From positions 64,013 to 128,012 of the forward strand of contig JACPHO010000002.1 in assembly GCA_016188545.1 (NCBI GenBank): a stretch of DNA of 64,000 nucleotides, in the 5' to 3' direction. Both the position numbers and the translations under genes were made by a program. The first letter of the stretch is position 1; each line of letters opens with the position of its first letter. The notes below the pieces were generated by a model, which had not been told where the DNA came from, made no database searches, and was given only the letters and a program-made list of their open reading frames with translations. Origin of the DNA: Candidatus Shapirobacteria bacterium. Lineage in GTDB: Bacteria > Patescibacteriota > Microgenomatia > UBA12405. Shown here one piece after another: positions 11,392 through 31,884 of the stretch.

Positions 11392-11413
11392 GTAATGATT
11401 TTACAACACAAAC

Positions 11414-13039: not shown

Positions 13040-13111
13040 ACCTTGTGAAAAATCCTAAATCCTAAATTCAAAAGTAAAAAATAAAAACATGATTAGGAAT
13101 TATAGAACAAA

Positions 13112-14032: not shown

Positions 14033-14084
14033 TAATCAATTATCAATTAGGAATTAGGAATTAGCAATTTGTTAAAATGGGAGC

Positions 14085-15053
14085 ATGAGTGAAAATATAT
14101 ACGACACTATAATAATTGGTTCTGGCCCGGCTGGGTTGACGGCGGCAATTTATAACATTAGGGCGAACCTAAGGACAATTGTACTTGGAGGAGATCAGCC
14201 TGGTGGACAACTAACGCTAACAACTGTGGTGGAAAATTATCCCGGGTTTGCCACCGGAATTGGTGGACTAAAACTGATGATGGATATGCAAACTCAAGTA
14301 AAAAATTTGGGGGTGGAGATAAGAAACGCCAAAGTAATGGGCATTTCAAAATTCAAAATTCAAAATTCAAAATTCAAAATTGAATTAGAGGATGGACGGG
14401 TACTGGAGACAAAAGCGGTGATAGTAACGACAGGGGCGAAGGCAAGATGGCTTAATTTACCAAAAGAGAAGGAGCTAATTGGTAAGGGAGTATCAGCCTG
14501 TGCGACTTGTGATGGAATGTTTTTCCGAGACAAGACCGTAGTGGTGGTTGGAGGTGGTGATGTAGCTTGCGAAGATGCAATGTTTTTAAGTAAATTCGCC
14601 TCTAAGGTTTATTTGATTCATAGAAGAGATACTTTACGCGCCCAGGTTTATATCAGAGAAAAAATAAAACTAAATCCAAAAATTGAATTTGTTTGGGATA
14701 CTGAAGTAATAAATATAAATTCAAAAAATGAAAGTCAAAATTCAAAACTTGAAGATATTAAAATAAAAAATAACAAAACTGGTGAGGAAAAGGTTATGCA
14801 AATAGACGGATTGTTTGTGGCGATTGGACACGATCCGGCGACGAGTTTTGTCAAAGATTTGGTGGAATTGAAAGAAACAGGTCATGTGATCGTAGGAAAA
14901 AGTGAAAAGTATCCAACAATGACATCTGTTCCAGGAGTTTTTGCAGCCGGCGACAATGTTGACGACGTATATCGACAGGCAATTATCGCCGCGGGACATG
15001 GAGCAATGGCGGGAATGGATGCTGAGAGATGGCTGGGGGAGAATAAATCTTAA
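14085..15053 (+). CDS. trxB: Thioredoxin-disulfide reductase with an in-frame (AAAATTC)n insertion
   Basis: FAD motif IIIGSGPAGLTAAIY. Redox-active CATCDG. NADPH motif VVVVGGGDVACEDA. A heptamer tandem repeat at 14345-14377 encodes the duplicated KFKIQNSKFKI. Confidence 0.9.
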   Translation: MSENIYDTIIIGSGPAGLTAAIYNIRANLRTIVLGGDQPGGQLTLTTVVENYPGFATGIGGLKLMMDMQTQVKNLGVEIRNAKVMGISKFKIQNSKFKIELEDGRVLETKAVIVTTGAKARWLNLPKEKELIGKGVSACATCDGMFFRDKTVVVVGGGDVACEDAMFLSKFASKVYLIHRRDTLRAQVYIREKIKLNPKIEFVWDTEVININSKNESQNSKLEDIKIKNNKTGEEKVMQIDGLFVAIGHDPATSFVKDLVELKETGHVIVGKSEKYPTMTSVPGVFAAGDNVDDVYRQAIIAAGHGAMAGMDAERWLGENKS

Positions 15054-15085
15054 ATCCCAAACTCAAAAGTAAAAAGTAAAAACAT

Positions 15086-15750
15086 ATGACAATTTTAGAC
15101 AAGAACAATCAACTACCAATACAAATTGACTATTCTAGACAATATAAACAGGGTGAAACATTTAGGACTTCGGCATTTGTCTTGGAAGTACAACATCCTA
15201 ATCCAACACAAAATGATGTTGCAAAAATCGAAGGTTTGAGATAGGGAGGAATGCAGTGCTTCTCTACTTGCTTTGCTGCTTGGGCAGTTATGCAAGATCT
15301 CGTCCAAAAAAATGAAGTTAGATCTCTTATTAACAAAATAGACCGTGCTCTAGAAAATAATGGGGGGGTGTTTATGGATATAGCAGCTTGGCAATTGAAC
15401 AACTCTCAATAAACGCCGAACAAAAAGAAGAGATTCAATCAGCAACAAAAAATTCAAGCGTTTCGGCCGAGTGGAATTCTCTATCAGAAACTGAGAGGGG
15501 AAGAAATAATGCAAATCTATTGAAAAATGGTGGAGCACTAATTTTACAAAGCGGAAATCATTACAGACTGGTCTGCATTGACAATACTTCTAGGTTAGTA
15601 ATATTTGACCCATTACTTGGTAAAGTGACACCCATCAATTCTGAAACGGTATATGATTACGCTCGGCCAGAAACTATTGGAAGAACCGGCGCTGTAATAA
15701 TTGAGCTACCAACCTTCAAGGGACAAGATGAGGATTTTATAATGAACTAG
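15086..15750 (+). pseudogene. Possible frameshifted C39-like (papain-fold) peptidase gene split into three ORFs of 52, 52 and 120 aa
   Basis: Consecutive ORFs in different frames. The middle ORF has MQCFSTCFAAWAV (candidate catalytic Cys region). The last ORF has GNHYRLVCIDNTSRLVIFDPLLG, matching the His/Asp C39-like motif GGHFVLGVAV…IVTADP of the 1156-aa T4SS hydrolase. A G7 homopolymer lies at 15362-15368 near one frame break. Confidence 0.3.
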
Positions 15751-15807
15751 GTGTTAATGTACATCACATTGACAAGTTGTACAAAATAGTTTAGAATTTT
15801 TGTACAA

Positions 15808-16074
15808 ATGACTATAACAGTGCAAATATCAGACTTTCGAAATAACATGGCAATGTATTTAGCAAAATTGAAAGTGGGACAAATTATTGATATCAAAAAA
15901 GGAGGTAAGTATTTAGCAAAACTTTCAAAACATCCTAAGGCAGTTGAAACTAGAGAATATAAAGATGCTGACGAATTTATGGCTAAGTTGAAGAAAATAT
16001 GGTCAATGCAGGCAAAAAGTAAAAAGAAGACCAATTACAGTATGAGAGTGGATGAAATCTTGTATGGTAAATAA
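15808..16074 (+). CDS. Phd/YefM-like antitoxin
   Basis: 88-aa protein. N-terminal ISDFRNNMAMYLAKLKVGQIIDI resembles the antitoxin fold. 3' end overlaps the downstream PIN gene by 23 nt. Confidence 0.55.
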   Translation: MTITVQISDFRNNMAMYLAKLKVGQIIDIKKGGKYLAKLSKHPKAVETREYKDADEFMAKLKKIWSMQAKSKKKTNYSMRVDEILYGK

Positions 16075-16474
16075 AAAAATCCTGATCGATAGTTGTGTTT
16101 GGATTGCGTTTTATGACAAAAACGACAGACAGCATGAAAAAGCAGTAGAATATTTTGAAAAAAATAAAGAGAAACAGTTTTTATATGTTATACATTTTTT
16201 GGTGTTAATCGAAACTTTGTCAATTTTGAAATATAAAAAGTTCGACCCTGAGATATTAAAAGAAATTAGAAGGCATGCCTCTGGTACTGAAGAAATTGAG
16301 ATTGTTAAAAGGGGTGAAATTAACTTATCACCAAAGATGTGGGGGTTATTTGAAACGGTTAACAGACTTGGAGTAGTAGACGTAATTTTGCTTGACTATT
16401 GTCTTAAAAATAATATGGAGATAGTTACTTTTGATGTGGCATTGAATGAATTGTGGAAGAAACTAGTTTTTTGA
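16052..16474 (+). CDS. vapC: PIN-domain ribonuclease toxin (VapC-like)
   Basis: N-terminal ILIDSCVWIAFYDKND (acidic D-x-x-x-x-D start) and C-terminal VVDVILLDYCLKNNMEIVTFD, typical of the PIN fold. Paired with the upstream antitoxin. Confidence 0.65.
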   Translation: MKSCMVNKKILIDSCVWIAFYDKNDRQHEKAVEYFEKNKEKQFLYVIHFLVLIETLSILKYKKFDPEILKEIRRHASGTEEIEIVKRGEINLSPKMWGLFETVNRLGVVDVILLDYCLKNNMEIVTFDVALNELWKKLVF

Positions 16475-17543
16475 TTTTCTGAGCAAAAATGTCGTGGCTA
16501 AATTTTTGAGAGTGCATGATACAAACTGCAGAATCGAATTTTAGTTTTTCAAAGCGTTTGATAGCTGTAATAAGGGAGTCCACAGTAGGTTCATCAAAAA
16601 AAACACCTGTTTTATTCTCAACAACTGACTCAAGGTAGCCACCGCCACGAAAGGCAATGACCGGAGTTCCAAAATGCATAGCTTCGACGGGAGTCATTCC
16701 AAAGTCTTCATCGACAGACAGCGCAAAAAAGGCCTTGGCTTTGGCATAACAGAGATTGCGATCTTCATCAGAAAGTCGGCCGAGAAATTCGACTCGGTCA
16801 CCGGCTATTTTTTGGAGGTGGTGGTACTCCGTGTAATATCCAGCCGACTCTCCAATTATTTTTAGTTTAAAACCAAGCTTAATAGCGGCGTTTACAGCTA
16901 AATCTAGACCCTTGGCACCGACAATTCGCGAAGTGATTAGATAATAATTTTCTTTGGATACTTTTGGAACTGGTGGAAGTGAAACAGGTGGGTAAATAAC
17001 AATAGAATCACGGCGATAAAACTTTTTAATACGATTGGCTACATTATGAGAATTGGCGACAAACACATCTACTTTTTGAGCCTGTGAAAAATCGTAAAGT
17101 CGCATAAAGTGACCAACAATCGCGGCATAAATACGAACTGGCCAATACTTTTGAAACTCGATGGAAGTTTTGAAACCATAAAGCCAACGAGGTGGGGTGT
17201 GACAATAGCAGATTTCTTTGGTGGAAGGACCTTTGCGAAAGCCCTTGGTGATATACCAACTGGCTGAACCGATAACGACGTCGTACTGTGAGAAGTCAAA
17301 ACTACCCCAAATAAGTGGGGTTAGAAAACGAAGAGGACTATGGAGCTTGCTACTAAAAAATGGAATGTAGTGTGCCCAAGATGGAACAATAGTACGGTGC
17401 TTAAAGTGGTTGTAGGCAGTCGAGTTCTTTTTGTAAAAGGCGGTAAATATAGGGGCGTTGGGATAAATATCGGCTAACTCCGAGAGTACCCGTTCAGCTC
17501 CTCCAAACTCATTGAGATAGTCGTGAACGAGGGCGATCTTCAT
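16425..17543 (-). CDS. GT4-family glycosyltransferase
   Basis: C-terminal EDFGMTPVEAMHFGTPVIAFRGGGYLESVVENKTGVFFD matches the GT-B/GT4 E-x7-E region. Confidence 0.8.
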   Translation of the reverse strand: MKIALVHDYLNEFGGAERVLSELADIYPNAPIFTAFYKKNSTAYNHFKHRTIVPSWAHYIPFFSSKLHSPLRFLTPLIWGSFDFSQYDVVIGSASWYITKGFRKGPSTKEICYCHTPPRWLYGFKTSIEFQKYWPVRIYAAIVGHFMRLYDFSQAQKVDVFVANSHNVANRIKKFYRRDSIVIYPPVSLPPVPKVSKENYYLITSRIVGAKGLDLAVNAAIKLGFKLKIIGESAGYYTEYHHLQKIAGDRVEFLGRLSDEDRNLCYAKAKAFFALSVDEDFGMTPVEAMHFGTPVIAFRGGGYLESVVENKTGVFFDEPTVDSLITAIKRFEKLKFDSAVCIMHSQKFSHDIFAQKIKKLVSSTIHSMPHQK

Positions 17544-17579: not shown

Positions 17580-18596
17580 CTAGAAAAGGGTAGTTTGAGT
17601 GGATGTTGACACAGGCTGGGGAGGTTTTTGAGGATGGCGACGACGGATTCGTGATAAGAGAGATTTGAAGTTGTATTCTGCAAACAACTTTTCTAAGGAG
17701 AGGTAGGTGCCGGGGAGTAACTTGGCAGAACGGAGGGTAAATTTGAGTGGAATATTGGTAACCAAAGAGGCTAACTTTTGACTAAGATAGGCATTTTCCT
17801 TGTCTTTGAGGAGCTTTGATTTGACGGTGTCTTTGATCTCTGATGATTTTTCAAGAGCGGAATAGATATTATCCAAAGTTCGATACTTGGTTAATAGATC
17901 AGTAGCGGTCTTGGGACCAATGCCTTCAATCCCAGGATAATTATCCGATTGATCCCCCATCAAGGCCTTGAGGTCAACCACCTGATTGGGATTGACACCC
18001 AGTCGCTCTTTAACTGCCTCCGAGTCATAGACCTTGGTAACTGACAACCCTTGAACTGGCACGAAAAGATTAACTTTGTCGTCAACCAGTTGCATTAGAT
18101 CTTTATCGCCAGTAATAATGGTGACTTGGGTAATGATTTTTTTACCCTTTTTATGGCGCCTCAATGATTTTTTGGTGATTGTAGCGATAAGGTCGTCGGC
18201 TTCAAAGCCACCCATGGAATAATGAGAGATTCCAGCAGATTCTAATGTTTTAGGTAGGAGCGGAAGCTGAGTTTTAAGGTCAACATCGGCGGGTTTTCGT
18301 TGGGCGCGGTAACCGACAAACTCTTCATTTCGAAAATTGGGGCCTGGTGAGTCAAGACAGACAATAAGATACTTTGGTTTGAGGGTGTCGAGAGCCGAAA
18401 GAATCATCGAATAAAAACCATAAATAGCGTTGACAGGCTGACCATTGGAAGTAAGTGGGGGGATGGAGTGATAAGCACGGTGGGCTATGGCGTGACCGTC
18501 GACTATGACTAGATGAGACATAGGATAGTTTAGCAAGTTCATAAAGTTGGAGAGATAAGGTAGAATTTTAGGAGATGGAACAGCACGCAATTCCAC
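17580..18596 (-). CDS. Stand-alone 5'-3' exonuclease / flap endonuclease (Pol I N-terminal-domain-like)
   Basis: HLVIVDGHAIAHRAYHSIPPLTSNGQPVNAIYGFYSMI…YLIVCLDSPGPNFRNEEFVGYRAQR (PIN-like 5'-3' exo N domain). H3TH motif GDQSDNYPGIEGIGPKTATDLL. Confidence 0.8.
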   Translation of the reverse strand: MELRAVPSPKILPYLSNFMNLLNYPMSHLVIVDGHAIAHRAYHSIPPLTSNGQPVNAIYGFYSMILSALDTLKPKYLIVCLDSPGPNFRNEEFVGYRAQRKPADVDLKTQLPLLPKTLESAGISHYSMGGFEADDLIATITKKSLRRHKKGKKIITQVTIITGDKDLMQLVDDKVNLFVPVQGLSVTKVYDSEAVKERLGVNPNQVVDLKALMGDQSDNYPGIEGIGPKTATDLLTKYRTLDNIYSALEKSSEIKDTVKSKLLKDKENAYLSQKLASLVTNIPLKFTLRSAKLLPGTYLSLEKLFAEYNFKSLLSRIRRRHPQKPPQPVSTSTQTTLF

Positions 18597-19504
18597 AGCA
18601 GATTTCGTCGTACGAATTCAAACTGGTGGGAGACATGACACTTAAGCAATTTTTGAAGGCCGCAGTGGGAATAGTATTGGCGGTAGCTATTAATGCAACT
18701 AATTTGATTTTTTTCCTTAAATATCCGCTAATGTTGATATTTGGTGGAGGTGGACTGATGATGGCATTTGTACCCTTTCAAGATAGACCACTAGAAACTT
18801 GGGTAATTGCATTCTTAAGATCAATTTATTCTCCGACAATTTATACATACAAAAAAATGCCGGATAAAGACTGGATAAGTTTGATGAATAGCAAATCTGT
18901 AGGAAGAGATAAGACCCTTGATGAAGCAGAAGAAGTGTCAGTGCCAGTGAAAGACAGTAATAAGGTCAGGGAGTTTATAGAATCTTTGCCAACAGTAAAA
19001 ATGAGCGAAGCGGTGATAGATGAACCAATAGAGGAAGACGAGAGGACATTGATTGGAAAAATCGGAATGGGGGGAAATACTAACAAACTTCCTGAAAGAG
19101 AATCTGATGTACCAGTAAAAACAGAGGAACCACCAAAAGAAAATTGGCGTGACAAAAAAGCAGAACTGGGGTTGAAAGCTGATAAAGTCGAGGCAACGGC
19201 TAAAGTTGTTTTTGGCGAAATTCCAATGCCAGATAAACCAGATATTCCAAATATGATGGTAGGAATGGTAACTAACAGTGAGGAGAAAATTGTAGATGGG
19301 GCAATTGTAGAGGTACAGGATAGTAAAGGAAACCCGAGTAGAGTGCTAAAGACAAACTCCCTGGGACAATTTAGAACAACCACTCCACTTTCGAATGGTA
19401 AATATTTGATCATTACTGAAAAAGAAAAGCTAGAATTTGACAGAGTCGAAGTCGAACTGGTCGGCAAAATAGTAGAACCAGTAAAAATAAAGGCGATAGT
19501 ATGA
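18575..19504 (+). CDS. PrgI/VirB3-like T4SS membrane protein
   Basis: N-terminal ISSYEFKLVGDMTLKQFLKAAVGIVLAV followed by a second TM helix, then a soluble tail. Resembles PrgI-family proteins that sit directly upstream of VirB4 in Gram-positive-type T4SS. Confidence 0.45.
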   Translation: MEQHAIPQQISSYEFKLVGDMTLKQFLKAAVGIVLAVAINATNLIFFLKYPLMLIFGGGGLMMAFVPFQDRPLETWVIAFLRSIYSPTIYTYKKMPDKDWISLMNSKSVGRDKTLDEAEEVSVPVKDSNKVREFIESLPTVKMSEAVIDEPIEEDERTLIGKIGMGGNTNKLPERESDVPVKTEEPPKENWRDKKAELGLKADKVEATAKVVFGEIPMPDKPDIPNMMVGMVTNSEEKIVDGAIVEVQDSKGNPSRVLKTNSLGQFRTTTPLSNGKYLIITEKEKLEFDRVEVELVGKIVEPVKIKAIV

Positions 19505-19579
19505 GGAAAAGTTAAAACATAAAAGTTAAAAGTAAAAAATAAAGAAATTTTTGACTCGAATATATGGTTAAATTAAACA

Positions 19580-20299
19580 ATGGGTGTTGATCCACTAAAG
19601 ATTGCAATTAGAGGTAGTACTCAGGAGCATTTGCCGATTGAGGATATTATCGATGGAATGGTGTTACTTAAAGATGGTTCTTGCGTGAGCATTTTACAGA
19701 TTTCTTCGGTAAACTTTGACCTACTATCAGAGCGTGAACAAGGTGCTTTGATTTTTTCTTATGGGGGAATATTAAACTCTCTCAACTTCCCAGTTGAAAT
19801 TGTGATTTACTCAAACACGAAGGATGTAACTTTTTATCTTAATAACTTGAAGAAAGCAGAGGAAAAACAGACGAACATGCTTTTACGGGAACGGATTGTT
19901 CAGTACAGAAAATTTATTGAAGAAACTGTCAAGAAAAATGATGTTTTGTCAAAAGCTTTTTATGTGGTGGTGCCTTTTTCGATTTTGGAACTAGGAATCA
20001 AGAGTATGTCTTCGCAGATGATGGGGGGGATGCCAGTGTTTACAAAGAAAGAGGCAAAAGAACTACCTTTTGCGAAAAGTTATATCTTAGAAAAAGCTAA
20101 GGCAAGTTTGGAACCAAAGAAGAACCATTTGAGTCGCCTTTTTTCAAGACTTGGGCTGGAAATTAGAACACTATCAACTCGGGAATTGATTGAATTATTT
20201 TATAAAATCTATAATGAAGATACTGCAGCCGTACAGCGGGTTTCATCTTTGAACTACGACTCACCGATGATTACTACTAAAGAAAACCCAAAATCCTAA
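19580..20299 (+). CDS. Protein resembling the VirB4/TraC N-terminal domain
   Basis: PIEDIIDGMVLLKDGSCVSILQISSVNFDLLSEREQGALIFSYGGILNSLNFPVEIVIYS resembles the N-terminal domain of VirB4-family proteins. Sits immediately 5' of the VirB4 gene. Confidence 0.4.
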   Translation: MGVDPLKIAIRGSTQEHLPIEDIIDGMVLLKDGSCVSILQISSVNFDLLSEREQGALIFSYGGILNSLNFPVEIVIYSNTKDVTFYLNNLKKAEEKQTNMLLRERIVQYRKFIEETVKKNDVLSKAFYVVVPFSILELGIKSMSSQMMGGMPVFTKKEAKELPFAKSYILEKAKASLEPKKNHLSRLFSRLGLEIRTLSTRELIELFYKIYNEDTAAVQRVSSLNYDSPMITTKENPKS

Positions 20300-20354
20300 A
20301 TCCAAAAGCCATGCCTACCGGCAGGCAGGTAAAAAATAAAAAGCAAAAACAATA

Positions 20355-22973
20355 ATGGATATTTTTAACTTAATTAAAAAAAACAAAAAAACTCCGGCAG
20401 AAATGGCAGCAGCGGTGGTGGATGTTAAAACTGGATTGATTGATCAGGGTAAGACTAAAGAGAGACAATTTGTAGAAGGGTTGGTCTCAACTAAAGATAT
20501 TATTGCTCCTGGTGCTTTGGAGGTTGAAACTGATTTTATCAAGATCGGAACTAAATTCTATCGAACTCTTTTTACAGTAATAAACAGACGTTTTGTGGAA
20601 ATTAACTGGCTATCAACTTTAATCAATTTCGATGCATCCTTGACGGTAGCCATGTACATCTACCCATCAGATGGTAAGGAAATTTTGGATGATCTTCGAC
20701 GTAAAATCACAGAAATGGAGGCAGAACTAACAACTGATATCCAAAGAGGGAGGATTGTAAACCCAGCAACACAAGCCAAACTTGAGGATGCCCTGAATCT
20801 ACAAGCTGACTTGGTTAAAGGTGAGGAAAGATTTTTCCAAATGGGTTTGTATATTACGGTAAGTGCTGAAAGTAAAGAACAGATGGATAAGGTGACCAAG
20901 AACTTAGAGGCAGCTATGGGTGCTCTAATGGTATTGACCAAGAGAACAACATTTGATGCTGAGAATGCCTTTATTACTACCCTACCACTTGGTTCTGATC
21001 GACTTAACCTTACTCGGAACATGGATACAACCTCACTGGCGACAACATTTCCATTTGTTTCATCTGATCTTTCTGACGATAAAGGGATTATGTTTGGAAT
21101 TAATGAACATAATGGATCACTAGTTATTTTCGACCGATTCTCAATGCAAAACTACAACTCTGTAGTATTTGCAACAGCTGGAGCTGGAAAGTCTTACATG
21201 ATTAAATTGGAGGCTTTACGGTCGCTAATGATGGGAACAGATATTATTGTAATCGACCCGGAAAATGAGTACAAAGATTTGTGTGAGGCGGCTGGTGGAC
21301 AATACATTGCTTTTGGGTATGGTGAAGCATCGAAGATTAATCCTTTTGACTTGTCTCTAATTGTTGATGAAGGTGATAATGCACTGAATGCCAAGATTTT
21401 GGGGGTACATAAACTACTAAAAGTAATGCTTGGTGAACTGGATCCAATCGAAGAATCCATTCTTGACCGAGCGGTAGTTGACGCTTACAAAATGAAAGGA
21501 ATTACTCCAGATCCAGAGACACAGTCAAAAGAGCCGCCATTGGTCGAAGATTTGTATAAATCACTAATTGGAATGGAGGATAAACAGGCGCAGATGATAG
21601 CGGCTCGGCTGGAAAAATATATTAAAGGATCGTTTGCGGGGATTTTTAACCAAAAAACAACAGTTAATTTGAAAAGCGAGTTTGTGGTTTTTGGAATAAA
21701 AAACCTGGAAGATACTCTGCGACCGGTGGCCATGCATATTATTCTTGACTACATCTGGACAGTAGTTAAGAAAGAAATGAGAAGAAGAATCTTAGTTGTC
21801 GACGAGGCGTGGTACCTAATGCAATACCCCGATTCGGCAGCATTCTTACGAGGAATTGTTAAACGAGGAAGGAAATACTATCTTGGGGTAACTACAATCA
21901 CTCAGGATGTAGATGACTTTTTGGAAACAGCCTATGGACGCGAAATCGTAACTAACAGCGCCATTCAAATTCTTCTAAAACAACACAGTGCGGCAATTGA
22001 CCAAATTGGGGAGGTTTTTTACTTATCTGAGGGAGAAAAACAACTACTTTTGTCAGCGGACAAAGGAGAAGGTATTTTCTTTGCCGGCCAAAATCATGTG
22101 GCAATTAGAGTGGTGGCGTCGGAAGATGAACATAAACTAATTACATCTAACCCAGAAGAGGTAATGAAGATGAAACAACAACTGAAGTTGCAGAGAGCAA
22201 AAGAGGCTGAAGATAGGCGGGTGGAAAGAGAAGCAATGGGACCACTTGGGACTAGCGACATCATTAAACAAATGGGTAAAACAGAGGAACCCTTAGTAAA
22301 AACAACAGAACCAGAATTGGTACTAACTAAACCTCCTGAAACGCTGGAAAAAACGGTAGTTCAATCACCTATAATGGTAACTGAGGTGGTGGGAGATACT
22401 AAACCAGAAGAAGAGCTGCAAAAAAGAATTGCTGAAATGGAGGCAGTTGAAAAAGAAAAGGTGGAAGAACATAAGAAAAAAGTTGCGGCAGAGGCTGAAG
22501 TATTAGCAAAAGAAGAAGTCGAAAAAAAGAAGCTTCAAGGAACTTTGGGTGGTTTTGGAACTCTACCAAAATATCAGGATTTATTTGTTAATAAAAATAA
22601 ACTACCTCCATTACCACCATTGCCTCCCCTTCCAAAATTCCAACCATCTACTGCACCATCAGCAAGTTCGGGGCTAAATAGTGCACCAGCACCAGTAGCA
22701 CCAACAACGCTTCCAAAATCACCACAATTTGCGACCGAGGTAGTATCTAATACTGGCAAACCGACTTTTGTGAATTTACCGAAAGAAGAAGTAAAAGTAC
22801 CACAACCACCTCAATTGTCGAAGAAACCCCAACCAGTATTTGAAAATCAAACAATGCCACAGCCAGTAAGTACTCAACCGTCTACAGCAGCGACCATGCC
22901 AACTGATAAACCAAAAGATAACCAAAATAACGCTCCTGGAATGGACTATGACAAACTGTTTGGGAACGTGTAG
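20355..22973 (+). CDS. VirB4/TrbE/CagE-family T4SS ATPase with a ~250-aa Pro/Ala/Ser-rich C-terminal tail
   Basis: CagE_TrbE_VirB-type region (FYRTLFTVINRRFVEINWLSTLINFDASLTVAMYIYP). Walker A VVFATAGAGKSYMIK. Walker B ILVVDEAWYLM. Tail …KLPPLPPLPPLPKFQPSTAPSASS…. Confidence 0.85.
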   Translation: MDIFNLIKKNKKTPAEMAAAVVDVKTGLIDQGKTKERQFVEGLVSTKDIIAPGALEVETDFIKIGTKFYRTLFTVINRRFVEINWLSTLINFDASLTVAMYIYPSDGKEILDDLRRKITEMEAELTTDIQRGRIVNPATQAKLEDALNLQADLVKGEERFFQMGLYITVSAESKEQMDKVTKNLEAAMGALMVLTKRTTFDAENAFITTLPLGSDRLNLTRNMDTTSLATTFPFVSSDLSDDKGIMFGINEHNGSLVIFDRFSMQNYNSVVFATAGAGKSYMIKLEALRSLMMGTDIIVIDPENEYKDLCEAAGGQYIAFGYGEASKINPFDLSLIVDEGDNALNAKILGVHKLLKVMLGELDPIEESILDRAVVDAYKMKGITPDPETQSKEPPLVEDLYKSLIGMEDKQAQMIAARLEKYIKGSFAGIFNQKTTVNLKSEFVVFGIKNLEDTLRPVAMHIILDYIWTVVKKEMRRRILVVDEAWYLMQYPDSAAFLRGIVKRGRKYYLGVTTITQDVDDFLETAYGREIVTNSAIQILLKQHSAAIDQIGEVFYLSEGEKQLLLSADKGEGIFFAGQNHVAIRVVASEDEHKLITSNPEEVMKMKQQLKLQRAKEAEDRRVEREAMGPLGTSDIIKQMGKTEEPLVKTTEPELVLTKPPETLEKTVVQSPIMVTEVVGDTKPEEELQKRIAEMEAVEKEKVEEHKKKVAAEAEVLAKEEVEKKKLQGTLGGFGTLPKYQDLFVNKNKLPPLPPLPPLPKFQPSTAPSASSGLNSAPAPVAPTTLPKSPQFATEVVSNTGKPTFVNLPKEEVKVPQPPQLSKKPQPVFENQTMPQPVSTQPSTAATMPTDKPKDNQNNAPGMDYDKLFGNV

Positions 22974-22994
22974 GTGAACTGTATAATAAATTGA

Positions 22995-25900
22995 ATGAAG
23001 AAGTTTGAATTGTATGAAGAACTAGGGCGGCTATCCGGCAGAGGTGAAATACTGGAAATATCTAATGCGGCTTACAATACCTGCAGTAGGTTATTTTCTG
23101 ACTTGGGAATGGGTGGAAAGTTTGATCCGACAAACCCAGGAAGGATGTTGGATGCTTTATATGGATTTGAAACAACGACAGGTAATAACAATAAAGTCAC
23201 TCAAGCATTGGAAGTAATTGAAGCAGACTTGAATCCTGCTGTGGAAACAAGAAATGACAAGGTGGGTCCAATGTCACTTAGGTCAGATCAATTAAAAGTG
23301 CTGCTTGATAAAGTTGATGAGAAAAAACATAGGGATGACGTAGAAGCGATGGCAACTGAAGCAACAAGAGAAAGATTGCTAAGGAATGCAGACCGTAACA
23401 TAGTGGTGGCAACACTAATAAAAAAGTTTGAAATACAGGAAAAACTCCATTCGATGGGAAAAACGAAGGCAGAGGCAGATAGACTTTCCGACCTAATCCT
23501 GGAGACTGGGCAAGTAGTAACGACCATTGTTGAAGATGATGAGTTTTTAGGAAAGGAATCACTTAGGCTAGCCGAAGAAATTGTGGAGCTGTCAGAGAAA
23601 GCCAAAACAACGGTCGAGGCAGTAGAGCTAGCAAAATCACTACAAGCTGAAAACTCAATTATAGATGCCAATGAAATGTTGCAGTACTTAGTAGAGACGA
23701 ACAGAGCCAGCCGAGAACTAGAAATAAAAATTGATGAAATAGCTAGAGATGTGGTAGCTGATGTTGAAAGAGAAGGAGGTTCGCTTGGGGGTAGGAAAGA
23801 TGAAGTACTAAAACTAATTGAAGAGAGATATGAGAAGGTACTAGTACATCCTGAGTATAATATTAATGAAGCAAAATACGAAACGAGAATAGGTGAAAAC
23901 GGAAGGTATGAGCGGGTAGTTGTCGAAAGAGGACTGACTGAAGAAATAGTTGAAATACTGAAAGGCGGAGCCAGAGGAAATATTCCAGGTAGACAGGAAA
24001 AAATAATTGAAGCAGTGGTGGAAAATAAGCTGGGAGCATCAGCAACTCCACTAACTGACGTGACCAATGCATCAACCGGAAATGAAGCAAAAATGATGAT
24101 GGAGAAACTCACATCACATGGTTTTGGGGCGGCAGATTTGAAAGCATTAATGAGATTGAGGTCGGGAGCGACAGAGTCGGGAATTGAGGGGATTGAAAAT
24201 GGATTGACACAAGAACATGAAATAAAAATAAAGATGGTAGGAAAGGGAGTGCCAGCAACGAAAATTGCTGAGGTGGAAATGGGAACTGTGGTAACGTCGA
24301 TGTTAAATGGCGATGAACCAATACCAGAGTTAGTTCAGAGAATTGAAAATGACTACAAAGCGAAGTTAGTCGGCACAGAGCATGGTGAAAGGAGACGACT
24401 AAAAGATGGTGATGTGCGTGTTGTTTCAAGGGGGTCAATTCCGGAAATGGAAGCTGTAGTAAAGGTAGCTGATAGGCTAAAAGACAGACCGGATTTGCAG
24501 GGCAGAATGGAGCTAATTCGAAAAATTGAAAAGGCAAAGAATTTTATTGATAGATATTCAGGTGGAGCAATAAGCAAAGCAATGGGAAACTCATCAATCC
24601 AAATTGGGAGAATAATGAAGATTGAGGGACTACAGCAGTTTGGAATGCAACTGGCTAGTCGTTATGGCGGGGTTATGGGGGAGGCAATGGCCTCTCAAAT
24701 AGTGAATTTTGGTTTTGAAAAGGGCTTACAAAACATCTTAGTCCAATTGCTTAGAACTGGAACTGTAAAGGCAGTGGAAGTGGGAGCAACAGGTGCAACA
24801 GCGGCCGCGGGAACAGCCGCAACCGGAACAGCACTTGCGGCTGGAGGACCGCCGACATGGATAGTAGCAGCGGTTTTGGCGGCAATAGCAGTGGTAAAAA
24901 AGGCCTGGAGTGGAATGGAAAAGGGTTTGATAAAAATGTTGGAGTTTTTGGGATTTGACTCGTACAAAACCCGAGAGTTTTTGAAAAACGGGGTGGGAAA
25001 AATAGTAACCGTTGGGGGAATGGCCATTGGTGGGGCAACAACAGTGATAATTGGTATTGGAGGGATGTTGATGTCTATACCGACAGGGATAATAGGGACA
25101 GTTTTTGCGATTGTATTGGCAGTATTGATTGGATACAACCTGCTTCAAGTGGCAACAACCCAAGTATCAAGTTTGGTGGTGCCAAAATCAGATCCGATTG
25201 TGGGGGCATGTATCAAAAAAGAGGATTTAACAGATCCCCCAACCGGACCGTTGGCCAATTGTAATGTAAACGCACCAGCATCGAATTATGGAGGAATAAG
25301 TAAAGATGCGTTTGTAACCCTAGCAGAAAGTTGGTCGGCAGGTGGCGGAGTCAATGCGGCAAGATGTTTTAATGATGTGGTTTGTAAGGCTTTAAGTGCT
25401 GGCATTAATCCGACATATGCACTGTGGGCATGGCTACATGAATCAGGAGCTAGTAACTATTCACTCGGGAGTGATATTGAAGATTTTGGGATACATTACA
25501 TCCCAGAAAATAATAATTTTAATGCGCAATGGGAGGCATTTGCCAAACTTGATCCAGCCTCAGGCTGCTCAGGGATTTCAGATTATTGGTTGGCTTTTGC
25601 CACTAATTATCTGAATGGCTCAGACCATTGCGACCCTGATTATCAGAATCCAACTTCAGGACAAACAGGAAGACAATATTTAGCCGAACTGCAAAGTACT
25701 TGGGAATGGTTAAATGCTGGGCCAATGCCAACATCGATACATGTGCCAAAACAAGCTTGTGGTGGAGGATCTCCTGAGGGTGGGGTAGAAGAAACGGATC
25801 CGAATACAGGCGAGAACTTTGTCTGCTTTGGGGGAGCAAAACTAGGCCCAAGTACCCCTTTAAACGGAGCTAAGAGTGGTGGATCGGTGTACAATCCAAA

Positions 25901-26465
25901 CGCGACAGGGCTAGAGGGAGAGAAAATACCAGGTGAATGTACTGTGTCTGATAAAGTGGTGTTGACAAAGCAGTGTGGACAGGCCTGGTCAAATAAAGGG
26001 TTACCTGGAGGATCGGGGACAATCTGCACAGCCGGCTGTGGACCAACCTCAGTCTCAATGATGCTGAGACACTTTAATGGGAGCCTAACACCAGATTCGG
26101 TTATATTTTCACCAGGGTCGGCATACAACTCAATGAACAACGATGGATCTAGTTTGGGACAAGCAACGGCGGAAATAAATAAATATTTTCCAGGAGCGGC
26201 TAGTAGTTCACAACCATGTGATGCTAAAGCAATTGGTGGTTGGATCTGTGCTGGAAAGGTGGTAATGGTGCTAGCTGATTTTTATAACAGCAACAGCTTG
26301 ACAGTGGGAGGACATTTTGTGTTGGGAGTGGCGGTTCAGAATGGAAGCATTGTAACTGCTGATCCTTACTATGCTACCAAAACTCCGTTTGATGGAACTA
26401 AAAAATATGGGTATGCTAGAAATATTCGGAGTTGTATTACTATTGATGCGAGTAAAATTAAATAA
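22995..26465 (+). CDS. Large T4SS-associated membrane protein with C-terminal C39-like papain-fold domain (VirB1/PrgK-type hydrolase analog)
   Basis: N-terminal ~550-aa coiled-coil region. Gly/Ala-rich TM helices at about residues 590-710. C-terminal CTAGCGPTSVSMMLRHF (nucleophile Cys) and GGHFVLGVAVQNGSIVTADPYY (His/Asp) as in Peptidase_C39-like domains. Positioned right after VirB4. Confidence 0.55.
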   Translation: MKKFELYEELGRLSGRGEILEISNAAYNTCSRLFSDLGMGGKFDPTNPGRMLDALYGFETTTGNNNKVTQALEVIEADLNPAVETRNDKVGPMSLRSDQLKVLLDKVDEKKHRDDVEAMATEATRERLLRNADRNIVVATLIKKFEIQEKLHSMGKTKAEADRLSDLILETGQVVTTIVEDDEFLGKESLRLAEEIVELSEKAKTTVEAVELAKSLQAENSIIDANEMLQYLVETNRASRELEIKIDEIARDVVADVEREGGSLGGRKDEVLKLIEERYEKVLVHPEYNINEAKYETRIGENGRYERVVVERGLTEEIVEILKGGARGNIPGRQEKIIEAVVENKLGASATPLTDVTNASTGNEAKMMMEKLTSHGFGAADLKALMRLRSGATESGIEGIENGLTQEHEIKIKMVGKGVPATKIAEVEMGTVVTSMLNGDEPIPELVQRIENDYKAKLVGTEHGERRRLKDGDVRVVSRGSIPEMEAVVKVADRLKDRPDLQGRMELIRKIEKAKNFIDRYSGGAISKAMGNSSIQIGRIMKIEGLQQFGMQLASRYGGVMGEAMASQIVNFGFEKGLQNILVQLLRTGTVKAVEVGATGATAAAGTAATGTALAAGGPPTWIVAAVLAAIAVVKKAWSGMEKGLIKMLEFLGFDSYKTREFLKNGVGKIVTVGGMAIGGATTVIIGIGGMLMSIPTGIIGTVFAIVLAVLIGYNLLQVATTQVSSLVVPKSDPIVGACIKKEDLTDPPTGPLANCNVNAPASNYGGISKDAFVTLAESWSAGGGVNAARCFNDVVCKALSAGINPTYALWAWLHESGASNYSLGSDIEDFGIHYIPENNNFNAQWEAFAKLDPASGCSGISDYWLAFATNYLNGSDHCDPDYQNPTSGQTGRQYLAELQSTWEWLNAGPMPTSIHVPKQACGGGSPEGGVEETDPNTGENFVCFGGAKLGPSTPLNGAKSGGSVYNPNATGLEGEKIPGECTVSDKVVLTKQCGQAWSNKGLPGGSGTICTAGCGPTSVSMMLRHFNGSLTPDSVIFSPGSAYNSMNNDGSSLGQATAEINKYFPGAASSSQPCDAKAIGGWICAGKVVMVLADFYNSNSLTVGGHFVLGVAVQNGSIVTADPYYATKTPFDGTKKYGYARNIRSCITIDASKIK

Positions 26466-26468
26466 CCT

Positions 26469-26882
26469 ATGTGGAAAAATAAATTACTTTTGATAGCACT
26501 AGTACTGTTGGCAGTAGTAGCAGGACTAATTGCGTTGTTTGATAAACCCAGCGATGAGGAAGTAAAAAGTGTTCCGGCGGAAAAGGTGGTAATTCCAACC
26601 AGAATTAATGAGCCGTTTTTTAGTGATACCGGTGCTAAGGATGAACCGATGAGTGATGATGAGTACCGGGTGGGACAATTGATAAATAAATTTAGAAATG
26701 TCTGTCCAGTGAATAACGAATTTTTTGTAGTCGATTTTGATTATAAGATTGATAAATTTGTGGTGTATATAAAAGATTATTCGGAAAAAAACAGACTGGT
26801 ATTTCAAAAATATCTTGAAGATGCTGGGTATATTGAGATTCCTAGTTCATGGTTTGTTTATACTAATAATGTCTACAGGTAA
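26469..26882 (+). CDS. Small membrane-anchored protein
   Basis: N-terminal TM helix (LLLIALVLLAVVAGLIALF) and small soluble domain. In the T4SS module. Confidence 0.4.
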   Translation: MWKNKLLLIALVLLAVVAGLIALFDKPSDEEVKSVPAEKVVIPTRINEPFFSDTGAKDEPMSDDEYRVGQLINKFRNVCPVNNEFFVVDFDYKIDKFVVYIKDYSEKNRLVFQKYLEDAGYIEIPSSWFVYTNNVYR

Positions 26883-27258
26883 AGAAATATTGGCTAAAAA
26901 TCAAGTAGTGGTTTTCTTGGTAATTACGATTGTGTTGTTGGCAGGATTGAAGATAAAATATGGATACAGGGGAGAAGGTGAAAGTCAAAAGTCAAAAGTC
27001 AAAAGTCAAAACGAAGAAGTAAACATAACACCGACAATGACGATGGTGCCAACGACGGATCCGAAAAAGGATTTTCCGTTGAGAAACGAACTACCGTATT
27101 ACGGAAAAGGGTTTGTGGTGGAGAAATACACTTCACCATTGACTTTAAAAATGATTCTTAATGGCGCGACTGAGACATACGCTACCAAAGCGGTTACCGA
27201 CTGGATTAACTCATTTGGTGATGCGATAGGGCAACATAAAATAGAGATACAAAATTAA
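26815..27258 (+). CDS. Small membrane protein with an in-frame (AAAAGTC)n repeat
   Basis: Two TM helices. (AAAGTC/AAAAGT) repeats at 26975-27005 encode QKSKVKSQ. True start may be the internal Met at 26869, which would reduce overlap with the preceding gene. Confidence 0.4.
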   Translation: MKMLGILRFLVHGLFILIMSTGKEILAKNQVVVFLVITIVLLAGLKIKYGYRGEGESQKSKVKSQNEEVNITPTMTMVPTTDPKKDFPLRNELPYYGKGFVVEKYTSPLTLKMILNGATETYATKAVTDWINSFGDAIGQHKIEIQN

Positions 27259-27284
27259 AAATTCAAAAGTAAAAAGTAAAAAAT

Positions 27285-27584
27285 ATGAAAAAAATAATTT
27301 TAGGAATTGTTTTATCAACTTTAATTTTAAGTGGGTGTACAACAAAACAGAATACAGTTAAGACGGCTGAGGAGAAGTTGCAGGAAAGTGTGGTGACAAA
27401 AACAGGGACAATATCAACTAAAGTGGGAGATGAATATTTACTATCAACCAGAGATGGGATCGTAAATATTACCAGTAATAAAGTAAATCTTGATACTTAT
27501 ATGAAAAAACCAGTCAGAGTTACAGGGATGTTTTCTGGATCAACTCTTTACGTCGATAAAATCGAGAGTGCAATAACAAACTAG
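27285..27584 (+). CDS. Small lipoprotein
   Basis: Signal peptide with lipobox ILSGC-TT. Preceded by an (AAAAGT)n motif. Confidence 0.5.
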   Translation: MKKIILGIVLSTLILSGCTTKQNTVKTAEEKLQESVVTKTGTISTKVGDEYLLSTRDGIVNITSNKVNLDTYMKKPVRVTGMFSGSTLYVDKIESAITN

Positions 27585-27802: not shown

Positions 27803-28159
27803 TTAAAGGATTTTTTTATATTCTTCTTGAACGTCAACATAAAATGCGGCTGTTTGAAGCATACTAATGCGCAAGTCAGCGTAACTAGCAGACTTTTTAG
27901 CATCAGGAGCTCCTGGATTTAACTTGCCTTTTTGCTGTTGTGCAGCAAATATTGCTGCATCAAGAGCGATACGACCGGCCTTACTTTCATTTCCAATCAC
28001 AATAAGCCCACCAAGATCTGGTTGTGGATTTTGGTGATTTGCTTCTATACTAACGATTTGATCGCTGATTTGTGCGTATTTCGGAGCGATAGCTTCACGA
28101 CTGGGACTGTTTTCGGGAATTTGAAAACCGGTTGGAAGATCAGGTACACTTGTTGGCAT
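27803..28159 (-). CDS. Hypothetical protein downstream of the transglutaminase-like gene (candidate partner or immunity protein)
   Basis: 118-aa ORF co-directional with and 77 nt after the transglutaminase-like gene. Region is GC-richer than its surroundings. Confidence 0.35.
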   Translation of the reverse strand: MPTSVPDLPTGFQIPENSPSREAIAPKYAQISDQIVSIEANHQNPQPDLGGLIVIGNESKAGRIALDAAIFAAQQQKGKLNPGAPDAKKSASYADLRISMLQTAAFYVDVQEEYKKIL

Positions 28160-28236
28160 TTTTGTTTTTTAATTATTAATTTATAAAATTAGTTTCGTTT
28201 TGGTTAGTAATTAATTATACAGTAATACTAGTTTTT

Positions 28237-28920
28237 TTAATGATCTTCTGGTCGATTATAATTCCGATTGAAGGTTTGGTTGGCTTCGGCTAATGTTCCG
28301 GCAAAACCATCGTTGGCAACATCAATAACATATATTGCACTCTTGGGGTTTGTATACCTTACCCACGCATGACCACCAAGTTCTTCGTCTAAATTTCTAT
28401 CGAGTGAAGCTTTTCCTCTCAAGAGTTGATCAGCGGTTAACCTTTGGGTAAGATATCCTGCTAATAGTGATTCATGGCGACAAACTCCGACATGGTTGTT
28501 AATGTAATAATCTAAACCAACCGGCTCTCCAGACGAAAAACCTTGATTGTAGACAGTTAGTTTTTTTTCGGAATAAGGTATATATTGCTCAACAATTTTA
28601 GCGATAGGTTTTAAGACCCTGTCTTTGAATGAAAATTTATTTTTATCAACCGGAGTATCTATTCTAGCTAAAAGATAACGATAAATATCGTGCAATATTG
28701 GCATTTTTCGATCATCAACATAGCACGCCTCTTCGTAGATATTTTTCCCGTCTGACATTACAAAAATACCACCGTTTATTGGGCCATCGCGATGAATGAG
28801 AGGCATGCCCTGATAGGTAGCTACTTCTGGTTGAGACTTATCAAAGAACAATTTTTTCTTGGGAGAAACAAATACTTTTGCATTTTCGGTATAGTTCCAA
28901 TTCTTAAGATCACCATTCAT
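28237..28920 (-). CDS. Transglutaminase-like / papain-fold cysteine enzyme
   Basis: Cys-His-Asp order: GVCRHESLLAGYL (Cys), GGHAWVRYTNP (His), IDVANDGF (Asp), as in transglutaminase-like cores. No signal peptide. Confidence 0.5.
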   Translation of the reverse strand: MNGDLKNWNYTENAKVFVSPKKKLFFDKSQPEVATYQGMPLIHRDGPINGGIFVMSDGKNIYEEACYVDDRKMPILHDIYRYLLARIDTPVDKNKFSFKDRVLKPIAKIVEQYIPYSEKKLTVYNQGFSSGEPVGLDYYINNHVGVCRHESLLAGYLTQRLTADQLLRGKASLDRNLDEELGGHAWVRYTNPKSAIYVIDVANDGFAGTLAEANQTFNRNYNRPEDH

Positions 28921-28928: not shown

Positions 28929-30053
28929 TTAATCCTGTATTCGAACAGGCATGATAATGTGGGTTAGTGTTGGATTGGAAGTATCTTGAAATAATCCAGG
29001 AGTCAGAGGTTCGTTGAGACTGATGATAATATTTTCACCTTGACAGATAGATAAAAAATCGGAAATAAATTTGTAGTTAAAGGCAATCTCAAGTGGTTCA
29101 CCTTCCACTTTGGAATCGACTGTGACTTTGTTTTGACCAACCTGGACAGCATTAGCTGAGACTTCAACTTGGTTGTTTTTGACAGACAGCTTAACAACAT
29201 TGGCTGATTCACGGGCAAAAACTGAAGCAATTTTTATGGACTGAGCGAACTCATCTTTGGAAAGGTTGATGGTAGTAGAAAAAGCACTAGGGATAATTCG
29301 GTTGTAATCAGGAAAGTCACCTTCAATAAGACGCGAAGATAGTTCAATATCAGGAGTAACAAAAACTAATTGATGAGAATCTTCACTGAGACCAAATTTT
29401 AATTTATCGACCGATTTTGTCATCTTGGAGACTTCAGACAAACTCTTTGAAGGAATCAGAAAAGTCAGTTGATCAACACTAGAGGGAAGAGTAATCGGTT
29501 CTACATGAACAATTTCTTTGACTGAGAGACGAAAACCGTCAGTAGCAACTAACTTGAAACTAGTAGAAGTAAAGATACAAAGAACAGCAGTGAGCACAGG
29601 TCGGGAATCGTCGGTAGATGAGGCAAAAACAACTTCAGATATGGCTGAGGAAAACTCCTTTAAAGAAATGTCGATGGCGGTTTTAGTGTTAATTGAAGGA
29701 ATGGCTGGATAATCAGAAGTTGGCGAAGTGGTAAAGGAAGAGTTGGCTTTTGATGAGGAAATTTCGAGTAAAGACTGTGGGTTGAGAGTAAGATCGAGTT
29801 TACCTGAAGGTAGATAGGAAATGAATTCAGTGATTTCTTTGGCGGGAATTGCCAAACTACCCTCGACATCAATCTTGCCACCAATCCAATAATTTATACC
29901 CATTTCAAGATTGGTAGCGGAGAGCTTGAGTCGGCCGTTGTTGGTGGTAAAAAGAATATGGCTGAGAATGGGTAACTGTGCTCTTAGGGCAACAAATCTA
30001 GAGACAGTGGAAAGAGCTGGGCTTAACGTTTCCTGGAGAAGTGACACCTTCAT
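28929..30053 (-). CDS. dnaN: DNA polymerase III beta sliding clamp
   Basis: 374 aa. Three-domain clamp-like composition. Immediately downstream of dnaA in the canonical dnaA-dnaN arrangement. Confidence 0.8.
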   Translation of the reverse strand: MKVSLLQETLSPALSTVSRFVALRAQLPILSHILFTTNNGRLKLSATNLEMGINYWIGGKIDVEGSLAIPAKEITEFISYLPSGKLDLTLNPQSLLEISSSKANSSFTTSPTSDYPAIPSINTKTAIDISLKEFSSAISEVVFASSTDDSRPVLTAVLCIFTSTSFKLVATDGFRLSVKEIVHVEPITLPSSVDQLTFLIPSKSLSEVSKMTKSVDKLKFGLSEDSHQLVFVTPDIELSSRLIEGDFPDYNRIIPSAFSTTINLSKDEFAQSIKIASVFARESANVVKLSVKNNQVEVSANAVQVGQNKVTVDSKVEGEPLEIAFNYKFISDFLSICQGENIIISLNEPLTPGLFQDTSNPTLTHIIMPVRIQD

Positions 30054-30403
30054 ATCTACAGTTTATAAAGTTTATAAGGTTTGTAAAGTTCATAAAGATT
30101 TGATGATGGTTGACGGTGAGGTGAATATGCGTTATTAGGTAAAAATGCTTTGTAGAACAGTAGTGTTAGTAGTAGAGTAGGTGAACAAGTTAATAATTAA
30201 CAATTAATAGTTAATAGTTGGGGATATTTTGAATATAAAATAATGTTAGTAAGCCGATAACCTTGGAGGTTAGTAGTAGATTTGCACGTTTTGGCTTATA
30301 AAACGAGCTTAGATTGGGGTAACCTTCGGGGGATAATGTGAGGATAAAATGTGGACAACTAAGTGGATAAGTATGTCAAGAAAGTGGATAACTTTAGTGA
30401 AGT
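30054..30403. promoter_or_regulatory. dnaA-dnaN intergenic origin element: DnaA-box cluster plus AT-rich 9-mer repeats
   Basis: TGAGGATAA 30338-30346, TGTGGACAA 30349-30357, AGTGGATAA 30361-30369 and 30382-30390 (consensus TGTGGATAA). Four tandem TTYRTAARG 9-mers at 30062-30097. Confidence 0.6.
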
Positions 30404-31756: not shown

Positions 31757-31852
31757 GGGAGAAACTTCTAAAGTAAAAAGTAAGAAATAAAAAGTAAAAA
31801 CATAGTATAGATACGTTAAATTTAAACAACGATACTGGGGCAAAGTTTCGAG

Positions 31853-31884
31853 TTATCCACATCATAATAAATTAGTTTTCCACA
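31853..31884. promoter_or_regulatory. DnaA boxes upstream of dnaA (TTATCCACA 31853-31861, TTTTCCACA 31876-31884)
   Basis: One perfect consensus DnaA box and one 8/9 match in the dnaA 5' region. Coding-strand bias switches here. Confidence 0.55.

Follow-up and report, generated by a model that had tools for sequence, protein, structure and literature searches.

The 64-kb stretch of Candidatus Shapirobacteria DNA analyzed here, referred to as a whole as the window, carries between 18575 and 27584 a cluster of type IV secretion system (T4SS) genes, in which a PrgI/VirB3-like protein, a TrsD-like protein, a VirB4 ATPase, a 1156-aa protein, two small bitopic membrane proteins and a lipoprotein are encoded in this order on the plus strand. 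The open reading frames (ORFs) are present at the coordinates given in the original prediction, which had been drawn from the letters alone, and profile and hydropathy evidence sustains the gene order that it proposed, i.e., a PrgI/VirB3-like membrane protein, an ORF resembling the N-terminal domain of VirB4, VirB4 itself, the 1156-aa protein, and small membrane protein and lipoprotein genes. Its comparison with a prgI-prgJ-prgK-like arrangement likewise stands, the gene identities being upheld by Pfam, NCBIfam and PDB matches. For this analysis, the proteins of the window were mapped onto a set of 80 species-level related loci (L001-L080), many of whose contigs end early, and Pfam scans covered the large ORFs of the window and most of the smaller ones, all but a few small ORFs.

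The VirB4 ATPase (20355-22973; 872 aa as an ORF, 856 aa in the NCBI annotation) scored 380 bits against the NCBIfam profile of the CD1110 family (cutoff 325), aligning with profile positions 178-734 of 752, and matched Pfam P-loop_TraG (E-value 5e-29) as well as the solved VirB4 domain of PDB entry 4ag5 (E 5e-51). Read from the sequence, its Walker A (AGAGKS) and Walker B (LVVDEA) motifs are intact. The core of the protein spans residues ~37-600 and is followed by a low-complexity tail rich in proline, lysine and glutamate (residues ~600-872, 22155-22973), which includes the string PPLPPLPPLP. The length of this tail varies between VirB4 orthologues (616-983 aa in total), and the Curtissbacteria-type VirB4 of locus L079, 641 aa long, has none. 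VirB4 is 100% identical to an NCBI Candidatus Shapirobacteria protein. Its best 120 matches are 57-100% identical to it; most of these carry no source name, and all those that do come from Patescibacteria, a group that also goes by the name Candidate Phyla Radiation (CPR). The nearest plasmid-borne VirB4 proteins belong to monoderm hosts and share 30-38% identity with it. The protein is expected to fall within the monophyletic Patescibacteria VirB4 clade that is nested in the mating-pair formation (MPF) class FATA (Quinonero-Coronel et al. 2025, PMC12102498).

The two genes preceding virB4 encode putative partners of the ATPase. The 309-aa product of the first (18575-19504) was recognized as a PrgI/VirB3-like inner-membrane protein by a Pfam PrgI match (PF12666, E 4.5e-5, 24.4 bits, profile positions 2-88 of 91) and by a hydropathy scan, which revealed an N-terminal two-helix hairpin with hydrophobic segments within residues 21-62. 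At its C-terminus, residues 230-284 match a CarboxypepD_reg-like beta-sandwich (Pfam, E 3.8e-4). Both regions are kept by its orthologues, PrgI being matched by 38 out of 38 (best E 3.7e-9) and CarboxypepD_reg by 37 of them. With the CD1110 score of VirB4, this family-wide match confirms by hidden Markov models (HMMs) the PrgI and VirB4 assignments that had been proposed. The second gene (19580-20299) encodes a 239-aa protein that matched NCBIfam TrsD (E 4.4e-11, 43 bits) and aligned with the N-termini of two VirB4 profiles, Mbov_0397 (positions 105-233) and CD1110 (positions 2-104), and the TrsD and Mbov_0397 profiles were matched by all 35 of its orthologues. Since the 872-aa VirB4 begins its alignment only at CD1110 position 178, the profile alignments indicate that this TrsD-like protein represents VirB4's N-terminal domain, which here has a gene of its own. 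BLASTP comparison of the 239-aa protein with the 872-aa VirB4 returned no match, as expected if the latter is devoid of that domain; profile searches settled the question.

Directly after virB4 lies the gene of a predicted cell-wall hydrolase of the VirB1 type, the 1156-aa protein. It begins with a charged, presumably cytoplasmic soluble region of ~610 aa (22995-24827) that matched no Pfam or NCBIfam family and has similar sequence, among the related loci, only in L001, L004, L067 and L071. A membrane-spanning region of about three helices follows (residues ~612-724, 24828-25166, hydropathy scan), and after it a VSSLVP motif that is conserved in the consensus of 40 positional orthologues. Fold comparison then distinguished two domains: a lysozyme-like domain with a glycoside-hydrolase/lytic-transglycosylase fold (residues ~745-950, 25227-25844), in which a W..HES motif (Glu816) is invariant and four cysteines are conserved, and a C39-like, papain-fold cysteine peptidase domain (residues 960-1156, 25872-26465) with invariant Cys1015 (GCGP), His1107 (GGH) and Asp1123 (DPYY). 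The C-terminal part of the protein is cysteine-rich. A search with the full-length sequence matched only the protein itself, probably owing to low-complexity words, and residues 725-1156 were used instead; exhaustive searching of 1.84 billion proteins with this segment yielded only 343 representative relatives. With these relatives as the alignment, AlphaFold2 returned a confident two-domain model (predicted local distance difference test score, pLDDT, 88.8), from which the protein is predicted to be a membrane-anchored glycosidase and peptidase, in line with the membrane hydrolase that had been proposed from its sequence. PDB sequence-profile searches with the lysozyme-like and C39-like domains returned nothing significant, and a Pfam scan of 21 mid-domain homologues gave no match; fold comparison alone worked.

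In the related loci an ORF of 580-1230 aa nearly always follows virB4, and its sequence diverges fast. Among the 40 positional orthologues of the 1156-aa protein, Pfam detected Peptidase_M23 in 13, NlpC/P60 in six, C39_2 in five, VanY in two, and CHAP and YkuD in one each, while the lysozyme-like domain is common to about 20 loci and the C39-like domain to six. This swapping of hydrolase domains downstream of virB4 between Microgenomatia species is a small addition to the published picture. Loci L035 and L038 are devoid of the large gene, their virB4 and dnaN genes being only 448 bp apart.

Three small genes complete the cluster. They encode a 137-aa bitopic membrane protein with an N-terminal anchor (26469-26882, hydropathy), a second bitopic protein of ~129 aa with the same topology (26869-27258), listed as an ORF from a TTG at 26815, whose start we place at ATG 26869, and a 99-aa lipoprotein (27285-27584) with a signal peptide and an LSGC lipobox, both read from the sequence. 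Homologues were found in six, 25 (at the matching position) and 13 of the 80 loci, respectively. The 137-aa protein matched no Pfam or NCBIfam family, a 20-sequence profile of the ~129-aa protein gave no match in the PDB, and the lipoprotein matched only signal-peptide-level lipoprotein families in NCBIfam. Two family-less ORFs of 118 and 227 aa (27803-28920, minus strand) separate the lipoprotein gene from dnaN. Neither has a counterpart in any of the 80 related loci, and because dnaN directly adjoins the lipoprotein gene in L001, the closest relative, they are best seen as a strain-specific insertion.

A second T4SS module, overlooked in the original prediction, occupies positions 50545-55901 on the minus strand. 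It comprises six tandem genes for VirB2-like T4SS pilins of 113, 128, 118, 129, 131 and 135 aa (53489-55901), five of which exceed the gathering score of 26.6 of Pfam T4SS_pilin (PF18895), the sixth reaching 19.2 bits. Pairwise identity among the six is 20-34%, and they have a further match in NCBIfam, to the Mbov_0395 pilin-like family from Mycoplasma integrative and conjugative elements (ICEs; E 5e-8). The next gene encodes a 471-aa secreted protein with a signal-peptide-like N-terminus (52073-53488) and no Pfam or NCBIfam match; it is unrelated to the protein of 1047 aa that L079 encodes in the corresponding place.

The last gene of the module (50545-52053) encodes a polytopic membrane protein of 502 aa, 100% identical to the NCBI hypothetical protein P0121 (502 aa), which we regard as a VirB6-like candidate from its predicted fold and its gene linkage. 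It has 609 homologues at E<=1e-5, the best 120 of which are without any Pfam domain, and gave no match itself in Pfam, NCBIfam or PDB sequence-profile searches. Its AlphaFold2 model (pLDDT 75) consists of very long hydrophobic helices, and VirB6 has been described as seven long, mostly hydrophobic helices (PMC9259494). When this model was compared with the PDB by Foldseek, the top five places were all taken by chains from R388 TrwJ/VirB5-TrwI/VirB6 stalk entries, at a probability of 0.72-1.0, E 0.03-0.1 and TM 0.31-0.44, with DotA sixth; the chains matched in entries 7o3v, 8rtd and 8rt9 may be those of VirB6. Gene linkage supports the VirB6-like assignment, a homologue of the 502-aa protein being encoded ~2-6 kb upstream of prgI-trsD-virB4 in the Curtissbacteria-type loci L079, L080, L075 and L077, with pilin genes beside it in L079. 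A matching module of six pilins, a 448-aa protein and a 498-aa protein, with the same flanks, was found on the 998-kb contig of a relative, L081.

The virB4 cluster itself is embedded in a gene order that recurs in Shapirobacteria and their relatives: fpg-h306-trxB-GT4-exo-prgI-trsD-virB4-[large ORF]-small ORFs-dnaN-dnaA-yidC, where h306 encodes a 306-aa protein, GT4 a glycosyltransferase, exo a 5'-3' exonuclease, and the large ORF is the one of variable hydrolase content described above. Matches to prgI, trsD and dnaN were obtained in 74, 78 and 51 of the 80 loci, respectively, many contigs ending early. The retention of this housekeeping synteny in ~80 species speaks strongly against an ICE; the T4SS cluster is a fixed chromosomal locus. 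As had been noted, the cluster adjoins the replication genes, Pfam identifying dnaN (28929-30053) and dnaA (30404-31843), both on the minus strand. Pattern searches located clusters of DnaA-box-like 9-mers between these two genes (30339-30452, with four inside 53 bp) and immediately upstream of dnaA (31853-31884). On the plus strand, GC skew stays above zero to the left and right of dnaA and the DnaA-box clusters, only stepping up by ~0.15 with no change of sign, and third codon positions behave alike whichever way their genes point; 37 of 43 related Shapirobacteria-type loci likewise have a positive skew in the left flank, whereas the sign flips normally in Curtissbacteria-type loci. Given that the skew keeps its sign at dnaA, proximity to the origin rests on gene content and DnaA boxes. 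Promoter and terminator scans returned nothing informative, promoter-like sites being fewer than in shuffled sequence.

No relaxase, VirD4/TcpA-type coupling ATPase or integrase was detected in the Pfam scans of the window, which took in its large ORFs and most smaller ones and in which VirB4 is the only AAA_10/TraG-type ATPase. Searches of the 64 kb turned up neither a tRNA gene nor a flanking direct or att-like repeat, and the ~7 kb lying further to the left, to which the search for mobility genes was extended, are likewise free of relaxase, type IV coupling protein (T4CP) and integrase genes. The lack of a relaxase or coupling protein in view, on which the original prediction had laid stress, therefore extends to the window's large ORFs and most of its smaller ones; the nearby relaxase or VirD4 and integrase with att sites that would mark an ordinary ICE were looked for in the 64 kb and not found. 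Together with the synteny in ~80 species, these results support the non-conjugative, non-integrative character that had been suggested. As a positive control, an Embleya plasmid whose VirB4 is 37% identical to that of the window carries PrgI, VirB4, T4CP, relaxase and NlpC/P60 genes, those for the T4CP and the relaxase directly following virB4.

Several neighbors of the two modules can be mentioned for completeness. A PIN-domain toxin gene (16052-16474) and a small ORF upstream of it (together 15808-16474), which lie between trxB and GT4 and overlap the 3' end of the latter, are probably an inserted toxin-antitoxin pair. Beside the pilin array, positions 56050-63209 encode a membrane protein of the 7TM_transglut type and three RimK-like ATP-grasp ligases, which are also pilin-adjacent in L081, and, after the ligases, dockerin- and cohesin-domain proteins (60358-63209). 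On the other side of the module lie genes for a DUF6909 protein (518 bits, 45035-46726) and a family-less 715-aa protein (48395-50542); the latter gene is convergent with the VirB6-like gene, and an 812-aa gene takes this position in L081. A copper/heavy-metal cluster at 219-7786 encodes an HMA-domain P-type ATPase of 1146 aa, cupredoxin-like proteins, a DsbD_2-HMA-cupredoxin fusion, a BlaR1-like M56 peptidase and a BlaI-type repressor.

Altogether, the locus is very probably the core of a Patescibacteria-clade T4SS, i.e., a chromosomal, vertically inherited descendant of MPF-FATA machines whose link to a relaxase was lost. Its mode of action can be proposed as follows. PrgI/VirB3 and the separately encoded TrsD N-domain would tether a hexameric VirB4 to the membrane, and the VirB6-like protein encoded 25 kb away would form a membrane platform, on which VirB4 would pull VirB2-like pilins from the membrane and polymerize them into a short pilus or tube, according to the model of pilus biogenesis by a VirB6 platform and a VirB4 lever (PMC9259494). 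The membrane-anchored lysozyme-like and cysteine-peptidase protein would cut peptidoglycan, thereby allowing the structure to cross a wall, which may be the cell's own, that of a host, or both. The resulting conduit could act where epibiont and host are in contact, serving for the export of effectors or for the import of macromolecules from the host.

Some observations weigh against this reading. Epibiosis and a transport function are extrapolated from Saccharibacteria, since to our knowledge no Shapirobacteria have been cultured. The PrgI score of the 309-aa protein (24.4 bits) is lower than the gathering score of 27, the TrsD score of the 239-aa protein (43 bits) is lower than the curated cutoff of 200, and the Foldseek scores behind the VirB6 assignment are weak (E 0.03-0.1). 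A coupling protein or relaxase could lie elsewhere in the genome, VirD4 homologues occurring in most Patescibacteria genomes, usually far from virB4 (PMC12102498). Finally, no VirB8-like (NTF2-fold) protein was found in the window, its small bitopic proteins being without family or PDB-profile match; VirB8 was likewise not found in most Patescibacteria (PMC12102498).

As for the function of such systems, the published accounts of Wang et al. (2023) given in a 2025 nomenclature review (PMC12857230) and a 2024 perspective (PMC11665869) report that S. epibionticum cannot grow as an epibiont without its T4SS and array of six pilins, that comEC is dispensable, and that the role of the T4SS is "completely unknown". 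In the terms of these two accounts, the Patescibacteria T4SS is the first one shown to be essential for the growth of its carrier, its substrate and direction of transport being unknown (PMC11665869; PMC12857230). A dedicated ComB- or Ced-like machine, importing host DNA or RNA as a source of nucleotides and secreting no protein, is conceivable, though on balance improbable. Patescibacteria are devoid of nucleotide synthesis, T4SSs have been put forward as a candidate route of nucleotide acquisition (PMC11665869), and a 2026 preprint (10.64898/2026.06.21.733656) describes feeding on host RNA and possible T4SS pili at the parasite-host interface. Helicobacter pylori ComB and archaeal Ced, which can import DNA, are VirB4 systems too, but the CedB profile matched the window VirB4 at 52 bits only, far under its cutoff of 700, and the ComB-type VirB7, VirB9 and VirB10 were not found, no VirB9 or VirB10 family being matched in the window. 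Pfam and NCBIfam scans saw no nuclease or nucleic-acid-binding component in either module. The original prediction had offered host interaction of the episymbiont type and DNA uptake as alternatives: the former is the published view (PMC12102498; PMC12857230), whereas the latter is weakened, because in S. epibionticum, the single experimental system, comEC is dispensable but the T4SS essential (Wang et al. 2023, as reported in PMC12857230). Moreover, an import machine would be a sub-case of the Patescibacteria-clade T4SS that we favor, differing only in the direction of transport, and the link between T4SS and uptake is drawn by analogy.

It is highly improbable that the two modules are independent systems, the one at 18.5-27.6 kb being an ATPase complex for wall remodeling or protein export and the other a separate surface filament of pilins and VirB6-like protein. 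The modules are 25 kb apart in the window and neither VirB8 nor a T4CP links them; however, the VirB6-like gene, in part with pilins, is close to prgI-trsD-virB4 in the four Curtissbacteria-type loci, genes for pilin-like, PrgI-like, TrsD-like and VirB4 proteins and a giant M23 hydrolase are contiguous in a Pontibacillus replicon considered below, and the assembly of VirB2 pilins is known to depend on VirB4 and VirB6 (PMC9259494), all of which argues for a single machine. Least credible of all is an ordinary or decayed ICE that has its relaxase, coupling protein and integrase beyond the window or lost them recently, since the membership of VirB4 in the conjugation-type family CD1110, the true conjugative modules among its closest non-CPR relatives (such as that of the Embleya plasmid), the PIN toxin gene nearby and the T4CP homologues common elsewhere in Patescibacteria genomes (PMC12102498) are set against the same housekeeping genes on both sides in ~80 species, which leave no insertion polymorphism, the lack of any integrase, tRNA gene or direct repeat found in the window, a GC content of 0.38-0.45 in the T4SS stretch that falls within the window range of 0.36-0.45, and the occurrence of relaxases in only 103 of 3,035 Patescibacteria genomes (PMC12102498).

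Within the Patescibacteria-clade T4SS reading, a more specific proposal, which we hold to be doubtful, is that the large gene after virB4 encodes a host-directed "drill" rather than a housekeeping VirB1, each lineage matching its hydrolase to the wall chemistry of its own host through the C-terminal cassette, which closely related Microgenomatia species exchange (M23, NlpC/P60, C39-like, VanY, CHAP, YkuD or lysozyme-like). If this were true, the cassette and the variable pilin array would set the host range of a macromolecule-importing T4SS feeding tube.

The essentials of the system were published between 2023 and 2025, namely MPF-FATA ancestry, TrsD, pilin arrays, lack of relaxase, proximity to dnaA, and essentiality in one Saccharibacterium. 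Since PMC12102498, PMC12857230 and PMC11665869 report the same features, the earlier finding and its interpretation reproduce published knowledge, to which the window makes small additions only: the variability of the hydrolase cassette, a candidate VirB6 of Microgenomatia, and a look-alike cluster in Bacillota. In the survey of Quinonero-Coronel et al., TrsD is the commonest companion of virB4 and PrgI/VirB3 is also found, VirB2-like pilin arrays, whose members share ~25% identity, occur above all in Microgenomatia and Saccharimonadia, relaxases are almost absent, proximity to dnaA/dnaN is seen in Microgenomatia and Paceibacteria, and homologues of VirB6 and VirB1 are rare in Microgenomatia or lie apart from virB4 (PMC12102498). 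Like these systems and that of S. epibionticum ML1, the one described here has an MPF-FATA-type VirB4, TrsD beside virB4, PrgI/VirB3, six divergent VirB2-like pilins, no relaxase nearby and a chromosomal site next to dnaA/dnaN. Nothing essential differs, the pilin/VirB6-like module lying here 25 kb from virB4. The window thus leaves the published picture unchanged and provides one more well-preserved example, from Microgenomatia, a class without cultured member, for which it may be of practical value as an annotated T4SS reference. Compared with the survey, it offers a VirB6 candidate recognized at the level of fold and, next to virB4, a bifunctional hydrolase, both of which escape standard HMMs; Microgenomatia probably do have the "missing" functions of VirB1 and VirB6, in forms too divergent for current HMMs.

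The Firmicutes MPF-FATA modules, such as PrgI-PrgJ-PrgK of pCF10, TraG of pIP501 and ConD-ConE-CwlT of ICEBs1, share with the window the gene order VirB3-like protein, VirB4 and then a large membrane-anchored two-domain hydrolase, the pairing of glycosidase and cysteine peptidase, and a monoderm architecture without VirB7, VirB9 and VirB10. In contrast to them, the window locus has no relaxase, T4CP, oriT or adhesin, the N-domain of its VirB4 forms a separate TrsD, like that of pGO1, and its hydrolase has an N-terminal soluble region of ~610 aa and a peptidase that is C39-like, not CHAP or NlpC/P60. VirB2-like pilins, reported to be absent from classical Gram-positive systems (PMC12857230), are present here. 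With the VirB systems of R388 and Agrobacterium (MPF-T), the window has in common a VirB2 pilin, VirB3, VirB4, a candidate for the VirB6-like platform and a VirB1-like hydrolase, and their logic of pilus biogenesis (PMC9259494) would carry over to it; unlike in these systems, VirB5, VirB7-11 and VirD4 were not detected in the window, and sequence likeness is limited to VirB4 (E 8e-5 to TrwK) and the pilin fold family.

An architectural parallel outside Patescibacteria came from the 898-kb replicon of Pontibacillus sp. ALD_SL1 (NZ_CP062975.1, L084), a megaplasmid or chromid typed as non-mobilizable, whose cluster at 351.8-361.4 kb (locus positions 7501-17054) runs from two Mbov_0395-family pilin-like genes through a 779-aa protein, PrgI-like, TrsD-like and VirB4 genes to a 1050-aa M23 hydrolase. 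Its TrsD-like and VirB4 proteins are 29% (E 2e-27) and 37% (E 9e-138) identical to those of the window, and the PrgI-like proteins were related by hhalign at 85%. The 779-aa protein was considered as a member of the VirB6-like family and showed no detectable relation to the 502-aa family. No relaxase or T4CP is annotated within 12 kb of the cluster in the PLSDB gene tables, which are incomplete. Unlike the locus of the window, this cluster resides in a free-living member of the Bacillota, beside flagellar genes and not next to dnaA; a pilin-bearing, relaxase-less layout is therefore not exclusive to Patescibacteria. As a companion to the drill proposal, such an architecture may predate Patescibacteria and persist in some free-living Bacillota such as Pontibacillus, and a Bacillota replicon with a similar pilin-bearing cluster could serve as a tractable model.

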